From a virus (lineage: Duplodnaviria; Heunggongvirae; Uroviricota; Caudoviricetes), in IMG/VR virus record IMGVR_UViG_3300007609_001205, positions 104,834 through 151,869 of that record: a stretch of DNA of 47,036 nt; one strand, written 5' to 3'. The notes under the pieces were generated by a model. That model saw nothing but the letters and a program-made list of their open reading frames with translations, did no database searches and had not been told where the DNA came from. This document shows positions 38,776 to 46,517 of this stretch, piece by piece; the stretch's first letter is position 1; each line of letters begins with the position of its first letter. Made by a program: the position numbers and the translations under genes.

Positions 38776-38848
38776 GGTGGATGTAGCTCAGGGGAAGAGT
38801 GTCGGTTTGTGAAACCGAAGGTCGGGATTTCGAAACTCCTCATCCACA
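38776..38848 (+). tRNA. tRNA-His(GTG), G-1 opposite A73, T-stem mismatch
   Basis: Cloverleaf folded by hand; anticodon 38809-38811; no encoded CCA. Confidence 0.8.
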
Positions 38849-38850
38849 CA

Positions 38851-39091: not shown

Positions 39092-39183
39092 GGTGATTGT
39101 AGCTGAATGGTATGTAGTACCGTAAGGGAACAAGCACTTGGTTGTGACCCAAGAGGATGCCGGTTCGAGTCCGGTCTTTCACC
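39092..39183 (+). tRNA. tRNA-His(GTG) with G-1:C73 and greatly expanded D-loop
   Basis: CTTGG-TTGTGAC-CCAAG; 28-nt D-loop (39105-39132); two T-T mismatches in acceptor stem. Confidence 0.8.
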
Positions 39184-39669: not shown

Positions 39670-40617
39670 ATGGAATATTATGAAGAAATACAAAAATACT
39701 ATGATGATGGACATACAATTGCGGAAACATGTTTAAAATTCAATATAAGTGAGAGTAAAGCATATCGGGCATCAAAAAGAGGACAACTAAAATTTAGAAG
39801 TCTGAGTGAAGCGATGAAAATATCATGTAAAAAGAAACCTAGAAAGCATACAGATGAAACAAAAGAAAAACTAAGTAAGATACGTAAAGAATATCTTCGA
39901 AAAAATCCAAATAAAGTCCCATACCTATTAAACCACAGTAGTAAAGGATCGTATCCGGAAAAATACTTTACTGAGGTATTTAAAAGGGAAGGATTAGATG
40001 TTGTTAAAAAATTTAGAGTTTCTTTATATGAACTTGACTTTTCTATACCACATAAAAAGATAGATATTGAAATAGATGGGAATCAACATTATGATGATAT
40101 TAAAATAGTTGAAAGTGATATTAGGAGAAATGAATTTCTCGAAACAGAAGGATGGGATGTAATACGTATAAATTGGTCAAACTATCAAAAATTAAATTAT
40201 AAAGAGAAAAATATGTTCATAAATGACCTCAAATCTTATGTAAATAATTTAAGTGAAATCAAACCAACCATAACCACTAAACCAAGTATGAGAGGAAAAA
40301 ATTTATGTGAATGTGGTGGATTAAAAACAAAAAAATCTAAACTATGTAAAATATGTAGGCACGAAAACTCTAAAAAAAGAGATATTAAATCTTATAAATC
40401 AGAACGTAGAAAAAAATATAAATGCAATTCTTGTGGGAATAAATGTACAAATAAAAATAAACGATGTCGTAAATGTTACGAGATTGATAATAGAAAGGTT
40501 ACCGACCGACCAAGCAAAGAATCACTCATAAAAGATATTGAAAACATAGGATATTCTGCAACGGGTCGAAAGTATGGTGTTAGTGATAATACTATACGAA
40601 AATGGATTAAGAATTAA
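39670..40617 (+). mobile_element. free-standing homing endonuclease-like gene (NUMOD3-like + Vsr/DUF559 nuclease + Zn ribbons + HTH)
   Basis: KHTDETKEKLSKIRK; ELDF..IEIDGNQH..D..RNEFLE..GWDVIRI; CECG, CKIC, CNSC, CRKC; ATGRKYGVSDNTIRKW. Confidence 0.8.
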
Positions 40618-40632
40618 TTAAAATCACAAATA

Positions 40633-41832
40633 ATGGAAACACTAAATTTTAGAATTTTAAACATCAGATTGCACGGTAGGTCAGCCTTTATGGATGTTCT
40701 AACCAACGGTGAAAACTTACAGTGTTATATAAACTCACAAGTTGAAAACTTCACCGAGATAACAGAACTACCAAATGGTTCTCACCTTGGCTGTCGTGGA
40801 GAATACTTCACAACAAGAACAGGACACTACACATTCAGAATACTTGAAGCAGACATTCTGAATATTCCCAACAGACCATTACCTGTTGTTCAAAATGATG
40901 GTGAAACACTGTATAACATAACAACTGATAGAGAAGATATCCGAAGAAGAAGATATCTGAACACTATACTCAATCCAAATGAAAGAGATATATTTGTTAC
41001 TCGATCAAGACTTATCTCTTTGATAAGAAACTTCTATAATGACAATGGTTATATGGAGGTAGAAACACCTATCTTACAACCAGTATATGGTGGTGCAGAG
41101 GCAACTCCATTCACTACACATTTCGAATCACTTGATATGGATTGTTATATGAGAATTGCACCTGAATTGTATCTTAGAAGAATGATCATTGGTGGTTATG
41201 ATAGAGTTTTCGAGATAGGTAGAAATTTTCGAAATGAAGGGATTTCTTCTCGACACAATCCAGAATTCACTGTTATGGAATCATATACTGCATATGAGGA
41301 TTATAACTTCAGTATGGACATGGTTGAAAACATTCTTTTGGGAATTCATAATGAATTTGGAACCGTTACATACAATGGGAATGAAATAGATTTCTCAAAT
41401 GTATCAAGAATATCATTCGTGGAATCAATTGAAAGATACTATGGTGAAACAGAAAGCCTTTCAGATATTGAATTGAATGAGTTGTTTGAAACACACGTTG
41501 AGCCAAATTTGATACAACCAACAATGGTATATGATTACCCATCAAGTATAAGTCCATTGGCACAAGTGAGATCGGACAATGAAAACATTGCCGAAAGATT
41601 TGAACTTTTCATCTCAGGTATGGAAATTGCCAATGCCTATTCAGAACTTAACGATATAACCAGACACGTTGAGAATATTGGAGACGATGACCAAGATTTC
41701 ATTGATGCACTATCATATGGTATGCCACCAACAACCGGTATCGGTATCGGTATCGATAGATTGGTTATGATACTTACTGATAGAACAATCAGAGATGTTA
41801 TCTATTTCCCTATGATGAGAAACCGTTCCTGA
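40633..41832 (+). CDS. lysS: class II lysyl-tRNA synthetase, compact and lysine-free
   Basis: OB-fold N-terminus; EVETPIL, GGAEATPF, RIAPELYL, FRNEG..HNPEF, E.ANAYSELND, YGMPP..GIGIDRLVM. Confidence 0.95.
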   Translation: METLNFRILNIRLHGRSAFMDVLTNGENLQCYINSQVENFTEITELPNGSHLGCRGEYFTTRTGHYTFRILEADILNIPNRPLPVVQNDGETLYNITTDREDIRRRRYLNTILNPNERDIFVTRSRLISLIRNFYNDNGYMEVETPILQPVYGGAEATPFTTHFESLDMDCYMRIAPELYLRRMIIGGYDRVFEIGRNFRNEGISSRHNPEFTVMESYTAYEDYNFSMDMVENILLGIHNEFGTVTYNGNEIDFSNVSRISFVESIERYYGETESLSDIELNELFETHVEPNLIQPTMVYDYPSSISPLAQVRSDNENIAERFELFISGMEIANAYSELNDITRHVENIGDDDQDFIDALSYGMPPTTGIGIGIDRLVMILTDRTIRDVIYFPMMRNRS

Positions 41833-42651: not shown

Positions 42652-42735
42652 ATTATTCACATAGAATACAAAGGAAACTTAAAATTAAAAAGAAATAAAC
42701 CCAAACACTCACCGCAATTGCTCATATATAATAAT

Positions 42736-43917
42736 ATGAAATATATCTTAACATTACTTCTTACACTACCATTCATTTCAATTTCACAATCCGTGACGAT
42801 AGATGGTGGATTTATACGAATGACCGGTGATTCCAGGATCATAATAGTCAATGGTGGTCCGGATGCATTCAGTGTAACATCAAATGGTGGTGGTATAATA
42901 ATGGAAGATGAAAATTCTGTTGTTCAATGGAATGATGTGAACTCAATCGGTACATATATGATACCATTTGCATCTTCCTCAGGTGATACTATTCCATTTA
43001 CTTATGAAATAAGTGATGTTGGTGTGGGTGGTGATAACATAACATTCAATTCACATGAGGTTGCACCGGATAACTTTCCCATGCCAACCGGAGTCCTTCA
43101 TATAACAGATGACTTTGGAACTGACAATGGACCAAGTGTAATAGACCGTTACTGGATAATAACACCAAATGGATACACGACAAAACCAAGGGGGACTTAT
43201 ACATTCACATACGATGACAATGATTGGAATGACCCAACCAATTTCATAAATGAGGCAAACTTAACTGCCCAACGATATAATTCAGATGAAGATAAATGGT
43301 TAGATTGGTTATATGGACCAACTACGAATACCATCACTAACCAACTTACCATAACAATAGCCAACCAATTGGATCAATATTCGGTATGGACATTATCCGA
43401 TATAAATAACCCATTGCCAATAGAACTTGTACGTTTCACGGTTGATTGTGAAAGTAGTGTTGTTACTTGGGTAACTGTAACTGAAACCAATACAAGCCAT
43501 TATATCATACAAGGTTCTGATGATGCATATGAATGGAACGACATTAGAACAGTAGAGGCTGCCGGAAATTCAAATCAAATTTTAAAATACAGTGAAAAGG
43601 TTGATCCATATGGATATTATCGATTACACCAATTTGATGTTGATGGTAGTAACAAATACTCTGACATTCTTTATGGATGTCCGGATTTCGAATCTATAAA
43701 TGTAATTGTTTTCCCCAACCCAAATGATGGAAGGTTTTTCATAAACCATCCGGGTATATATAATATTGAAATATATGATATGGTCGGTAAATTGATATTC
43801 AGTGAAAAAACAGACCAAAGGTTTTATGATATGACACACTTACCGAATGGAAGATATGTTGTGAACATACATAATGAAATAAATATACACACATTCAATA
43901 TGATAAAAATAGATTGA
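42736..43917 (+). CDS. secreted protein with T9SS type A C-terminal sorting domain
   Basis: Start moved to 42736 (MKYILTLLL signal peptide); PLPIELVRF; VFPNP...IYDMVGK...LPNGRYVV. Confidence 0.85.
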   Translation: MKYILTLLLTLPFISISQSVTIDGGFIRMTGDSRIIIVNGGPDAFSVTSNGGGIIMEDENSVVQWNDVNSIGTYMIPFASSSGDTIPFTYEISDVGVGGDNITFNSHEVAPDNFPMPTGVLHITDDFGTDNGPSVIDRYWIITPNGYTTKPRGTYTFTYDDNDWNDPTNFINEANLTAQRYNSDEDKWLDWLYGPTTNTITNQLTITIANQLDQYSVWTLSDINNPLPIELVRFTVDCESSVVTWVTVTETNTSHYIIQGSDDAYEWNDIRTVEAAGNSNQILKYSEKVDPYGYYRLHQFDVDGSNKYSDILYGCPDFESINVIVFPNPNDGRFFINHPGIYNIEIYDMVGKLIFSEKTDQRFYDMTHLPNGRYVVNIHNEINIHTFNMIKID

Positions 43918-43921
43918 TAAT

Positions 43922-45304
43922 ATGAAAAAAATACTAACATTCACACTCTTACTCATAACTACACATTCATTCTCACAGAACTATGTGGGTATCAGTAATG
44001 ATCAAACATTCACACCTGATACAACACTACATATTGACGGTTCATTGAAAGTCGGTCGTACTAATAGTTCCATTGGGAATATTTATTTGGCGAACAAATT
44101 ATATGATATGGACAATTCAAATTATTTTATAGATCCTGGTGCAGCAAGTCGGGTGAATGGCTTGGATTTGGACATAGGGAGCACAACAACTAATAGTGTA
44201 TATTTTTCCAATAATACAAGAACCGGCATTTACCAACCCACAATCCATAGTATAGGATTTTCTGTGGATGGAACTGAAGCAATTAGAATAACAGATAATA
44301 GAAATTTAGAATTGAATGGTAATGATATAAGAGGCGTAGAACAACTTCATTTCACAAATGGGGAAGTGTATATTGATGGTAATAATGGAGATATTGGACA
44401 AGTTATCAAATCTGATGGGGATATGGTGTATTGGGATGACATCTCCCCAATAAAAGCTGAGTCTATTTTTGAAACTCTTTCAGGTAGTGGGGGGGTTCTG
44501 TGGTCACATCCCGATGGGATTTATGTTTATATCGCCCCTGATGATAAATTAATACGAGTTGATAATACAGTATCCACTGATAACTGGAGTGTTTTTATAA
44601 GTGGTAGATCCACTGATTCATCTGATGAAATTGTTACAATATCTGATAATATTTCTAGTGGGAATAATGTCGAGTTGGATATATCAGGGTCGCCATGTGG
44701 CACAGAAGAGGTTTGGATAAATGAGATTCACTATGATAATTCTGGAACTGATACATTAGAGGGTGTTGAAATTGCCGGTGTTACCGGGACAGATTTATCG
44801 GGTTGGACCATTTACTCATACAGTGGGGCAGATGGGTTAATTTATTCACAAACAAGCCTAAATGGAATAATACCAAATGAATCAAATGGAATTGGTGCAA
44901 TGTGGTTTGGAATACTCGGACTACAAAATGGTTCTCCAGATGGACTTGTTTTACATGACGGAACAAGTGTTGTTATGTTTATCAGTTATGAGGGTACATT
45001 CACTGCAAATGATAGTGTTGCGGTTGGAATGACATCAACCGATATTGGTGTTTCCCAGTCACCTAATGAAGACATAGATCAAACTTTACAATTAACCGGT
45101 TCAGGTCTGTCTTATTCAGATTTCACTTGGTCTGTTCAAAGCAACAGGAGTGATGGAAACTTGAACGATGGACAGAATATAAACACATGTAATAGAAATG
45201 GTGGGTTTACTATACATGCTGGTAATAATACATCCGGTATTGGGTTTACTCTACACTGCACATTTACTGATAACACATTCATTGGTTTGGTACAACACTG
45301 GTAA
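43922..45304 (+). CDS. secreted beta-rich protein with lamin-tail-like domain
   Basis: Signal peptide MKKILTFTLLLITTHSFSQ; WINEIHYDNSGTD..EGVEIAG..GTDLSGW. Confidence 0.7.
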   Translation: MKKILTFTLLLITTHSFSQNYVGISNDQTFTPDTTLHIDGSLKVGRTNSSIGNIYLANKLYDMDNSNYFIDPGAASRVNGLDLDIGSTTTNSVYFSNNTRTGIYQPTIHSIGFSVDGTEAIRITDNRNLELNGNDIRGVEQLHFTNGEVYIDGNNGDIGQVIKSDGDMVYWDDISPIKAESIFETLSGSGGVLWSHPDGIYVYIAPDDKLIRVDNTVSTDNWSVFISGRSTDSSDEIVTISDNISSGNNVELDISGSPCGTEEVWINEIHYDNSGTDTLEGVEIAGVTGTDLSGWTIYSYSGADGLIYSQTSLNGIIPNESNGIGAMWFGILGLQNGSPDGLVLHDGTSVVMFISYEGTFTANDSVAVGMTSTDIGVSQSPNEDIDQTLQLTGSGLSYSDFTWSVQSNRSDGNLNDGQNINTCNRNGGFTIHAGNNTSGIGFTLHCTFTDNTFIGLVQHW

Positions 45305-45350: not shown

Positions 45351-45735
45351 ATGCCGGGAATAATATCACCACACACTAATTTAGGATAAGTGCCTTTACC
45401 TGCCACGAGAAGTTCAAATTTAATATTAGACCAAAACGGGAAATTAACCATATTGAGAAGTAATGGTTCGTCTGAACAAATAAGTGCAACTGGTGGAGTA
45501 TATGGATCTGGGCCAATTGGACCAACCAGACCTAAAAGGAGCAACTGGTTCTAACGGAATTTCCACCCTATTATATGAAATGGCATATGAAACATTCTAC
45601 AATGGATTTTCATTTTCGACATTAACACCACCATATTACAAGATAACAGGTTTTCAAACAGACGGATTCATTGGTTATCGTATTACCAACTTCTTAAACA
45701 TTTTGGTATATAAAAAACATATCATATATTTGTAA
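45351..45735 (+). pseudogene. decayed collagen-repeat (fibre-like) gene
   Basis: MPGIISPHTNLG*VPLP...GPIGPT, then frameshift into KGATGSNGISTLL... Confidence 0.5.
45702..45732 (+). promoter_or_regulatory. Bacteroidota primary-sigma promoter for the His leader/hisS
   Basis: TTTG (45702-45705) - 19 nt - TATATTTG (45725-45732). Confidence 0.75.
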
Positions 45736-45736
45736 T

Positions 45737-45781
45737 ATGAACATGAGCACACATACCCATCAAAGAACACATTATATGTGA
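45737..45781 (+). CDS. His-rich attenuator leader peptide 3 (MNMSTHTHQRTHYM)
   Basis: 3 CAT codons (45752, 45758, 45770); alternative start at 45743. Confidence 0.8.
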   Translation: MNMSTHTHQRTHYM

Positions 45782-45820
45782 TCGGGAAAGTTGTGTTAAG
45801 TATAATTAGCAAACCCGATT
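45780..45820 (+). promoter_or_regulatory. antiterminator helix overlapping the leader stop
   Basis: GATCGGG (45780-45786) pairs with CCCGATT (45814-45820). Confidence 0.7.
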
Positions 45821-45860: not shown

Positions 45861-46517
45861 ATGAAAAACGAAATTAAATTAGAATCAACATACAAGGGTA
45901 CACGAATATTATGTGGGGAAATTGCAACCTATAAAAGAAAACTAATAAATGAAATGGTTGATAAAGTCACAGAGAAAGGATTCACAGAAGTAATGATACC
46001 TATAATCCAAAAACAAGACACTTTCCTTTCGAAAGTCGGTGATGAAAACCAAAAGATGATGTACTCGTTCAAAGACCGTGGGAATAGGGATCTCTGCCTT
46101 GCACCCGAATACACTGCCGTTGTTCAAAAATTGGCGAAAGAGGAATTTATATTTGGTAAAGGGAAACCTATGCCCGATGTAAAGTTATTTTACATTTCAG
46201 AATGTTTCCGAGGAGAGAACTCACAGAAAGGGAGATACCGACAATTTACACAATTTGGAGTGGAAATATTAAACCCCACAAAAGATTATTCTGACTACCT
46301 TTTGAATCTTGCAACTGAACTTATTTCTATGGTTACTCCGGATTATGAATATGATAAAGAGACAAGGAGGGGTCTTGATTATTATACCGAGGGAAAGGGG
46401 TTTGAAGTATCTTGCACTGAACTAGGGGCACAGAAACAGATATGTGGTGGTGGATCGTATGATGGTGGGATTGGATTTGCATTGGGTATTGATAGACTTA
46501 TATTAATTAAAGATTGA
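45861..46517 (+). CDS. hisS: minimal histidyl-tRNA synthetase (catalytic core only), histidine-free
   Basis: KGTR, motif 1 FTEVMIPII, LAPEYT, motif 2 FRGE..QKGRYRQFTQ, RGLDYY, GGGSYDG, motif 3 GFALGIDRL; no anticodon-binding domain. Confidence 0.88.
   Translation: MKNEIKLESTYKGTRILCGEIATYKRKLINEMVDKVTEKGFTEVMIPIIQKQDTFLSKVGDENQKMMYSFKDRGNRDLCLAPEYTAVVQKLAKEEFIFGKGKPMPDVKLFYISECFRGENSQKGRYRQFTQFGVEILNPTKDYSDYLLNLATELISMVTPDYEYDKETRRGLDYYTEGKGFEVSCTELGAQKQICGGGSYDGGIGFALGIDRLILIKD

Follow-up and report, generated by a model that had tools for sequence, protein, structure and literature searches.

An IMG/VR virus contig of 152 kb (IMGVR_UViG_3300007609_001205) ends in a 47-kb stretch (positions 104,834 to 151,869; 47,036 nt, hereafter the window) that carries a gene for a half-size, histidine-free homologue of histidyl-tRNA synthetase (HisRS), here called mini-HisRS. 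We think it probable that this is a working HisRS of a huge Bacteroidota phage, which uses only the acceptor end of its tRNA and is built for synthesis when histidyl-tRNA is scarce; its catalysis, dimerisation, tRNA specificity and attenuation are deduced from sequence. CheckV puts the completeness of the contig at approximately 25%. Among phage records, LR745206 (634 kb) and LR756502 (642 kb), both complete, are the closest to it, at 64–66% protein identity. Al-Shayeb et al. 2020 (PMC7162821) have genomes of 634 and 642 kb among their four largest; they placed their largest genomes in the Mahaphage clade, for which Bacteroidetes hosts are predicted, and counted as many as 15 synthetases in one genome, with no remark on the composition of these enzymes. 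The gene under study is:

45861..46517, + strand: mini-HisRS gene, ATG start, 218 amino acids (aa), class II core, no His codon

Architecture and conservation of the mini-HisRS

The catalytic motifs could be read directly from the sequence, with motif 1 at G40-F41...P47, motif 2 at F116-R117-G-E119...R125-Y-R127-Q-F129, the HisA peptide at R170-GLDYY, the HisB peptide at G197-G198-S-Y200-D-G and motif 3 at G205-F-A-L-G-I-D-R212-L, with the protein ending six residues after motif 3. Comparison with solved structures aligned the protein to Staphylococcus aureus HisRS in two blocks (residues 12–139 with 6–134 of the chain, and 162–215 with 249–315), so that the insertion domain of about 110 residues (chain 135–248) is replaced by approximately 22 residues (140–161), which form a single helix in the AlphaFold model. 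Neither the contig nor either complete relative gave a match to the C-terminal HGTP anticodon-binding domain (PF03129). Sequence reading and two-block alignment thus agree with the earlier sequence-only reading of this DNA, which had described a HisRS of about half the usual size retaining motifs 1–3 and RGLDYY and lacking the insertion and anticodon-binding domains. The same reading had singled out a change of GGRYDG to GGSYDG, which we rejected as meaningful; the Arg is not invariant in full-length HisRS (R29, E10, S9, A9, T6 at this HisB column among 68 relatives), and the Ser is therefore ordinary.

Pfam assigned the protein to tRNA-synt_His (PF13393, 1.9e-18, 67.2 bits against a cut-off of 25) in two stretches. 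With 62 family members as input, AlphaFold2 gave a confident model (predicted local distance difference test score 91.2, predicted template modelling score 0.89), whose top PDB matches were the catalytic domains of Escherichia coli, Acinetobacter baumannii and Thermus thermophilus HisRS (template modelling score 0.81–0.84, by query), followed by core-only PylRS enzymes. Comparison with PHROGs gave only a weak match to a family without a name, and no DNA nearly identical to the locus was present in the phage collection.

A search of 5.8 billion proteins returned 1,961 homologues within the allowed length range, the best 120 of which were 208–252 aa long with 63–77% identity, many of them on contigs of 100–656 kb. 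In an exhaustive search of representatives, some 50 clusters (50% identity) of one-block proteins of approximately 200–225 aa preceded the first full-length HisRS. On a tree of the core columns, 74 of 76 minis and none of the 68 full-length HisRS fell on one side of a branch with support of 0.99, which indicates that the mini-HisRS proteins form a single clade. The ratio of nonsynonymous to synonymous change (dN/dS) was 0.03–0.16 in pairwise comparisons of nine mini-HisRS genes, with synonymous sites (dS) saturated, as expected of a family under strong purifying selection. The conservation and selection of the family bear out the earlier view of a natural catalytic-core-only enzyme; the protein is a HisRS homologue and not a fragment. 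One member is found in the cultured Sinorhizobium phage Phosso, as a 196-aa protein annotated 'histidyl-tRNA synthetase' and encoded 276 nt downstream of a tRNA-His(GUG) gene. When partner domains were sought in longer members of the family, only an intein, a RhuM fragment or unannotated extensions were found, and no tRNA-binding domains; the intein, with a LAGLIDADG endonuclease domain, is inserted in the conserved core (approximately residues 80–95) of a 564-aa metagenomic homologue (P0122). Databases already label these proteins histidyl-tRNA synthetase; word searches of a limited literature library returned nothing on the minimal architecture of mini-HisRS, its lack of His or phage synthetases free of their cognate amino acid.

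The audit of active-site and tRNA-contact residues covered 120 members of the clade, 68 full-length HisRS and 50 distant minis, after the contacts of the T. thermophilus HisRS-tRNA complex (PMC4357726) had been mapped through the alignment to solved structures. Every column invariant in the 68 full-length HisRS was likewise invariant in all 120 clade members (P47, F70, D72, P82, E83, T85, R117, Q122, R125, R127, G133 and E135 in the first half; R170, G171, Y174, Y175, G197, G198, Y200, G205, G209 and R212 in the second), as were the key class II columns E119 and F129 in both sets. Q131 is invariant in the clade, with His at this position in 4 of the 68 full-length enzymes. The histidine-binding set (RGLDYY, G197-G198-x-Y200-D, E83, T85 and E135) is thus present and invariant within the clade. 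In T. thermophilus HisRS, E114 contacts A76, Q117 the A71/C72 backbone, R120 C74, R122 the G-1 phosphate and R7 C68 (PMC4357726); the equivalents of these acceptor-end contacts are kept in mini-HisRS as E119, Q122, R125, R127 and K12, respectively, and the cross-subunit RGGR loop is largely kept (R73-G74-N-R76).

Absence of histidine and of other cognate amino acids

Histidine is missing from the clade as a whole, with 117 of the 120 cluster representatives His-free and 3 His among 25,515 residues, a count in homologues that the sequence-only reading had proposed as a check. For the single gene that reading had put the chance of lacking His at roughly 1%, a figure that did not hold: the His frequency of the contig (1.8%) gives a chance of approximately 2% for one His-free protein of 218 aa, and over the same 218 columns about 20% of relatives are His-free (11/50 distant minis, 13/68 full-length HisRS). 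The single-gene statistic was set aside as weak in favour of a clade-level test. Distant minis and full-length HisRS have a mean of 2.06–2.09 His per sequence, scattered over 64 and 48 columns. The neutral test consisted of forward simulation along the maximum likelihood tree (length 9.87 substitutions per site) with an extant His-free sequence at the root. At the proteome frequency of 1.8% His, 200 runs yielded 124 ± 51 His with a minimum of 31; at the family's own frequency of 0.95%, 500 runs yielded 70 ± 43 His with a minimum of 9. None of the 700 runs ended with ≤3 His, indicating that the clade-wide absence of His is beyond chance and that His has been selected against. Since distant mini-HisRS carry 0–8 His (0 in the Phosso member), the exclusion of the cognate amino acid is specific to this clade.

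The parallel that had been drawn with the lysyl-tRNA synthetase (LysRS) of the same DNA is real, as the window enzyme has no Lys in 399 residues:

40633..41832, + strand, window: LysRS, 399 aa, 0 Lys, best NCBIfam match lysS at 424 bits; about 8% Lys in the proteome

The gene order is the same in L004, a relative of 230 kb, whose LysRS likewise contains no Lys. L004 also encodes a SerRS (L004:11336-12589, + strand) of 417 aa with 1 Ser, downstream of four tRNA-Ser genes. In a blind scan, the 603 open reading frames (ORFs) of LR745206 were ranked by depletion of any amino acid with annotation unused, and the outliers were named afterwards by Pfam and NCBIfam. The synthetases thus identified in LR745206 were (lengths excluding the start Met):

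L031:2047-4254: IleRS, 734 aa, 0 Ile
L028:16580-17944: AspRS, 453 aa, 0 Asp
L031:10522-11700: AsnRS, 391 aa, 0 Asn
L013:14378-15709, - strand: ValRS-like, without editing domain, 442 aa, 0 Val
L042:13818-14897, - strand: PheS-related 'mystery ligase SrmL', 358 aa, 0 Phe, NCBIfam 423 bits, above cut-off
L031:11720-12898: ArgRS-like, 391 aa, 0 Arg
L013:12195-13568, - strand: MetRS, 456 aa, 0 Met after the start
L030:8058-8804: AlaRS core, 247 aa, 0 Ala
L032:8154-9752: GlnRS-type (class I E/Q), 531 aa, 1 Gln
L030:7172-7912: GlyRS-like, 245 aa, 1 Gly

In every case checked, the best-matching synthetase family was the one predicted from the missing amino acid, and this held for the divergent ArgRS-, GlyRS- and AlaRS-like minis and for the PheS-related 'mystery ligase'; if the composition rule holds, the amino acid of SrmL would be phenylalanine. 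Strong miniaturisation was seen in the ValRS-like protein, the AlaRS core and the GlyRS-like protein (443, 248 and 246 aa with the start Met). The pattern was repeated in LR756502, with 0 Asp in a class II D/K/N enzyme, which we take as AspRS by analogy, and 1 Gln in a GlnRS-type enzyme. Extreme outliers are not always synthetases, as large SprB/CHU_C proteins of LR756502 contain almost no Arg (a single Arg in an SprB-repeat protein of 1,669 aa). Because the ThrRS-like protein of Phosso has a normal Thr content, the rule belongs to this phage clade.

Two further proteins of unusual composition were noted. A 918-aa protein of LR756502 (L063:5387-8146, + strand) without Pfam match contains 1 Glu (58 expected) and 1 His; it may be a highly diverged protein, GluRS-related or Glu-linked. 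A free-standing 176-aa tRNA_bind (Trbp111/EMAP-like) protein of LR745206 (L013:1133-1663, + strand) has 0 Tyr (8.8 expected), and could either assist mini-synthetases in trans as a tRNA-binding factor or belong to a split TyrRS.

Leader, hairpins and tRNA-His genes

Upstream of the mini-HisRS gene we identified a short His-rich leader ORF, preceded by a candidate promoter element and followed by a putative antiterminator strand and a terminator whose pairings exclude each other:

45725..45732, + strand: candidate promoter -7 box TATATTTG, putative, just before the leader ATG
45737..45781, + strand: leader ORF MNMSTHTHQRTHYM, ending in a stop codon, 3 His in 14 codons
45781..45786, + strand: putative antiterminator strand ATCGGG, beginning at the last base of the leader stop codon
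45811..45838, + strand: intrinsic terminator, 8-pair hairpin with a T run behind it, 22 nt upstream of the mini-HisRS ATG, from terminator scan and alignment

The leader MNMSTHTHQRTHYM lies 124–80 nt upstream of the mini-HisRS gene, with the terminator following it, and leaders are found at the same position in related loci (MKTNTHTHHMTH, MFNRTHTHHRTHKM, MKSMTHIHHRTHKVTG and MKTITHIHHSRHHHVTG). In the five aligned loci (the window and four relatives) these have 12–17 codons with 3–6 His (4–6 in the relatives), and a further locus, L051, has a leader of 31 codons with 2 His and the gene order leader, terminator, tRNA-His, mini-HisRS. The leader peptides diverge among loci, while their enrichment in His persists. 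The putative antiterminator strand ATCGGG (45781–45786) is able to pair with CCCGAT (45814–45819), the terminator's 5′ arm. In the five-locus alignment the terminator was paired in 34 of 35 cells with compensatory changes, and the antiterminator, an upstream copy of the 3′ arm of the terminator, in 29 of 30 cells with double changes at two pairs; columns 108/109, which both pairings share, show linked changes (5 sequences). From this arrangement, we infer that leader and hairpins act as a transcription attenuator sensing His-tRNA.

The leader region (45737–45800) and its homologues also share the nucleotide block ACACATA(C/T)CCATCA. A small hairpin, CACAT/ATGTG, spans the leader stop codon, and block and hairpin are both more conserved than the peptide. 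In the minimum free energy fold, the His-codon region pairs with the antiterminator strand, and this modelled pairing suggests a four-segment attenuator.

The candidate -7 box is also present in the loci L053 and L054. It fits TAnnTTTG, the consensus of the -7 box of Bacteroidota promoters. Together with type IX secretion sorting domains encoded in the window, this box before the leader would fit a Bacteroidota host. Two genes for signal-peptide proteins lie between LysRS and the leader (42718–43917 and 43922–45304, + strand). Both proteins are Lys-poor (2.3% and 1.5%), and one carries a C-terminal sorting domain for type IX secretion.

The window contains two tRNA-His genes:

38776..38849, + strand: tRNA-His(GUG), encoded G-1 (38776), A73; first gene of a His/Phe/Lys/Trp tRNA array
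39092..39183, + strand: second tRNA-His(GUG), encoded G-1, C73, enlarged D-loop; 51.7 bits with the Rfam tRNA model, missed by ARAGORN

The acceptor stem of the second tRNA-His has two U-U mismatches. A tRNA-His gene was located 0.1–7 kb from the mini-HisRS gene in 7 of 10 examined loci (the window, L001, L002, L003 at 5.6 kb, L004, L051 and L052), and all of these tRNAs encode G-1, with C73 in at least one per genome and A73 in the others. The sequence-only reading had placed a catalytic-core-only enzyme in the context of the G-1:C73 identity of tRNA-His, and the nearby genes, including the one in the window with C73, provide that context. Between the tRNA array and LysRS, at the same position as in L004, lies a homing-endonuclease-like gene (39670–40617, + strand) with helix-turn-helix, NUMOD3 and MTES_1575/DUF559 nuclease domains.

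Function of the mini-HisRS and comparison with known systems

In the mechanism that we favour, the protein, which is the class II catalytic core alone, would probably form a homodimer via motif 1. Histidyl adenylate (His-AMP) would be synthesised by R117, E119, Q131, E135, E83, T85, R170, Y174/Y175, G197/G198, Y200, G205/F206 and R212, and transfer of His would read only the acceptor end of tRNA-His, through K12, E119, Q122, R125, R127 and the cross-subunit R73-G74-x-R76 loop; the anticodon-binding domain may be dispensable because the identity of tRNA-His lies mainly in G-1:C73. When His-tRNA(His) is scarce, the ribosome would stall at the leader His codons, leaving the antiterminator free and allowing transcription to read through, while a ribosome reaching the leader stop codon would mask the antiterminator. 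As the mini-HisRS mRNA lacks His codons it would still be translatable, and its product could then recharge the phage's own tRNA-His. The mini-HisRS gene is the sole tRNA-synt_His match in both LR745206 and LR756502. Activity of stripped HisRS cores has precedent, as HisRS urzymes of 119–145 aa still activate His (PMC3060492), and the E. coli catalytic domain without the C-terminal domain is active at an approximately 2000-fold lower level (Augustine & Francklyn 1997, as cited in PMC3060492).

Several observations weigh against an active, acceptor-end-only synthetase. Both the insertion domain, which is the acceptor-stem clamp in T. thermophilus HisRS, and the anticodon-binding domain are gone, and the linker in place of the former is acidic without an obvious new RNA-binding surface. 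The score with the NCBIfam hisS model (TIGR00442) is 145.5 bits, below the equivalog cut-off of 286.75. The equivalent of T. thermophilus Glu64, reported to be essential in that enzyme (PMC4357726), is Met (E40 and Q16 in the full-length set), and that of Arg115 is Asn120 (R or K in 33 of 120 clade members; R48, E9 and N4 in the full-length set). Near-invariant HisRS positions are also altered, from LRPEGT to L(A/S)PEYT and from FRYE to FRGE, although Gln (in the Glu64 column), Asn, Ala or Val occur at the altered columns in some full-length HisRS too. Engineered HisRS truncations lose 2x10^3 to 9x10^6-fold in activity (PMC3060492). With regard to attenuation, no His leader was found upstream of mini-HisRS in L003 and L052, and L002 has a leader-like ORF with 1 His and a terminator. 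The loss of the acceptor-stem clamp and the Glu64-to-Met replacement in particular keep our confidence in activity moderate.

Mini-HisRS may instead work only with a tRNA-binding partner, either as a heterodimer with the full-length host HisRS via motif 1 or with a free-standing phage protein, a possibility that we consider unlikely. The retention of motif 1 and the cross-subunit RGxR loop would suit it, as would the poor activity of engineered core-only HisRS and the stand-alone 176-aa tRNA_bind (Trbp111-like) protein encoded by the 634-kb relative LR745206. However, there is no conserved adjacent partner, since the downstream genes differ among lineages (L002/L003, L004, L006, L051 and L053), and the longer family members carry no fused tRNA-binding domain. 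HGTP_anticodon is absent from both complete genomes, and a split enzyme with its anticodon-binding domain encoded elsewhere was rejected for LR745206 and LR756502 on the same genome-wide search.

Alternatively, the protein may activate His without being a tRNA synthetase, as a HisZ-like regulator of ATP phosphoribosyltransferase or as a ligase acting on another acceptor (compare AsnA, EpmA and amino acid:carrier-protein ligases, each in its own synthetase family), which we regard as improbable. HisZ likewise lacks the anticodon-binding domain, and a His-sensing leader and His-free composition would also suit a factor for His biosynthesis, given the known cognate bias (PMC4209129). The HisZ model (TIGR00443, cut-off 271.65) is matched below threshold, with scores of 85.7 and 67–84 bits, but the protein scores far higher with HisS (145.5 against 85.7 bits, where HisZ would require 272). 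No HisG (PF01634) was found in the contig, LR745206, LR756502 or phage Phosso, and no carrier-protein or EF-P-like neighbour was seen. Residues that contact only the tRNA acceptor (R125, R127, Q122 and K12) are invariant in the clade, and the gene accompanies tRNA-His genes and synthetases that follow the same composition rule. The HisZ role, which the sequence-only reading had named as an outcome that would overturn its view, is thus disfavoured (67–86 bits against 272, and no HisG in four phage records). Decay of a captured hisS gene, with the lack of His due to chance, is a very improbable account: half of the ancestral protein is gone and a His-free HisRS core is not rare (approximately 20% of relatives), but some 2,000 homologues are of like length, dN/dS is 0.03–0.16, the fold is confident, the catalytic residues are invariant over a tree of 9.9 substitutions per site, and 117 of 120 members are His-free against none of 700 simulations.

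The acceptor-end-only synthetase that we prefer may be part of a wider design rule of Mahaphage-type phages, in which every synthetase encoded by the phage has been purged of the amino acid it uses, some are gated by a leader rich in it and paired with phage tRNAs, and the HisRS of 196–220 aa, charging via the acceptor stem alone, is the smallest natural synthetase; for this extended proposal we consider the case evenly balanced, and leader gating within the synthetase set is shown only for mini-HisRS. If true, such a phage could rebuild the charging of any one tRNA species from zero, with starvation, host tRNA-targeting defences or the phage's own host shut-off as the trigger. The His-free coding sequence, His-sensing leader, linked tRNA-His and composition of the other synthetases would together amount to a built-in restart of translation when one aminoacyl-tRNA pool collapses. 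The missing amino acid can also serve as an annotation aid for divergent mini-synthetases, and compact anticodon-blind enzymes would be attractive parts for genetic code engineering. If active, a natural class II synthetase of approximately 210 aa would be smaller than any natural synthetase known to us.

Compared with bacterial HisRS (T. thermophilus 4RDX/1ADJ, E. coli 1KMM and S. aureus 1QE0), mini-HisRS has the same catalytic fold, motifs 1–3 and HisA/HisB, and like residues in contact with His, ATP and the acceptor end, but lacks the insertion of approximately 110 aa and the C-terminal domain of approximately 100 aa, is about half the size and contains no histidine. Engineered E. coli HisRS fragments and urzymes (PMC3060492) are likewise stripped of appended domains and still activate histidine; the urzymes also lack the HisA loop, whereas mini-HisRS keeps HisA, HisB and motif 3, and in contrast to these laboratory constructs it is natural, conserved and under purifying selection. 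If active, it would represent the conserved core that urzyme work proposes as the ancestral form, and an evolved test case for how far the acceptor stem carries the recognition of tRNA-His. HisZ is also HisRS-like without an anticodon-binding domain and tied to histidine supply, but mini-HisRS, in which the catalytic and tRNA-contact arginines are retained, is approximately 100 aa shorter than the HisZ models, which span 314 positions. A further natural parallel is PylRS without its N-terminal domain (Methanomethylophilus alvus, approximately 275 aa), a class II near-core enzyme that does not read the anticodon, which differs in its amino acid and tRNA, is larger, has a tRNA-binding N-terminal helix bundle in its core and is not phage-borne.

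In known attenuators, such as those of the his operon and the pheST synthetase operon, a leader ORF rich in the sensed amino acid is followed by mutually exclusive antiterminator and terminator hairpins, upstream of a gene that increases the supply of the corresponding aminoacyl-tRNA. The mini-HisRS leader follows this plan, but is phage-borne and compact (14 codons, 3–6 His), apparently has a Bacteroidota-type promoter and precedes a gene that is itself purged of the sensed codon. This purging recalls the cognate bias of cellular biosynthetic enzymes (Alves & Savageau 2005; PMC4209129), as in both cases proteins needed during shortage of an amino acid are depleted in it, which would keep their synthesis possible. 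There the bias is statistical, whereas in the phage synthetases the exclusion is total (0/734 Ile, 0/453 Asp, 0/399 Lys), which extends cognate bias from a statistical tendency of biosynthetic enzymes to absolute exclusion in enzymes of translation.

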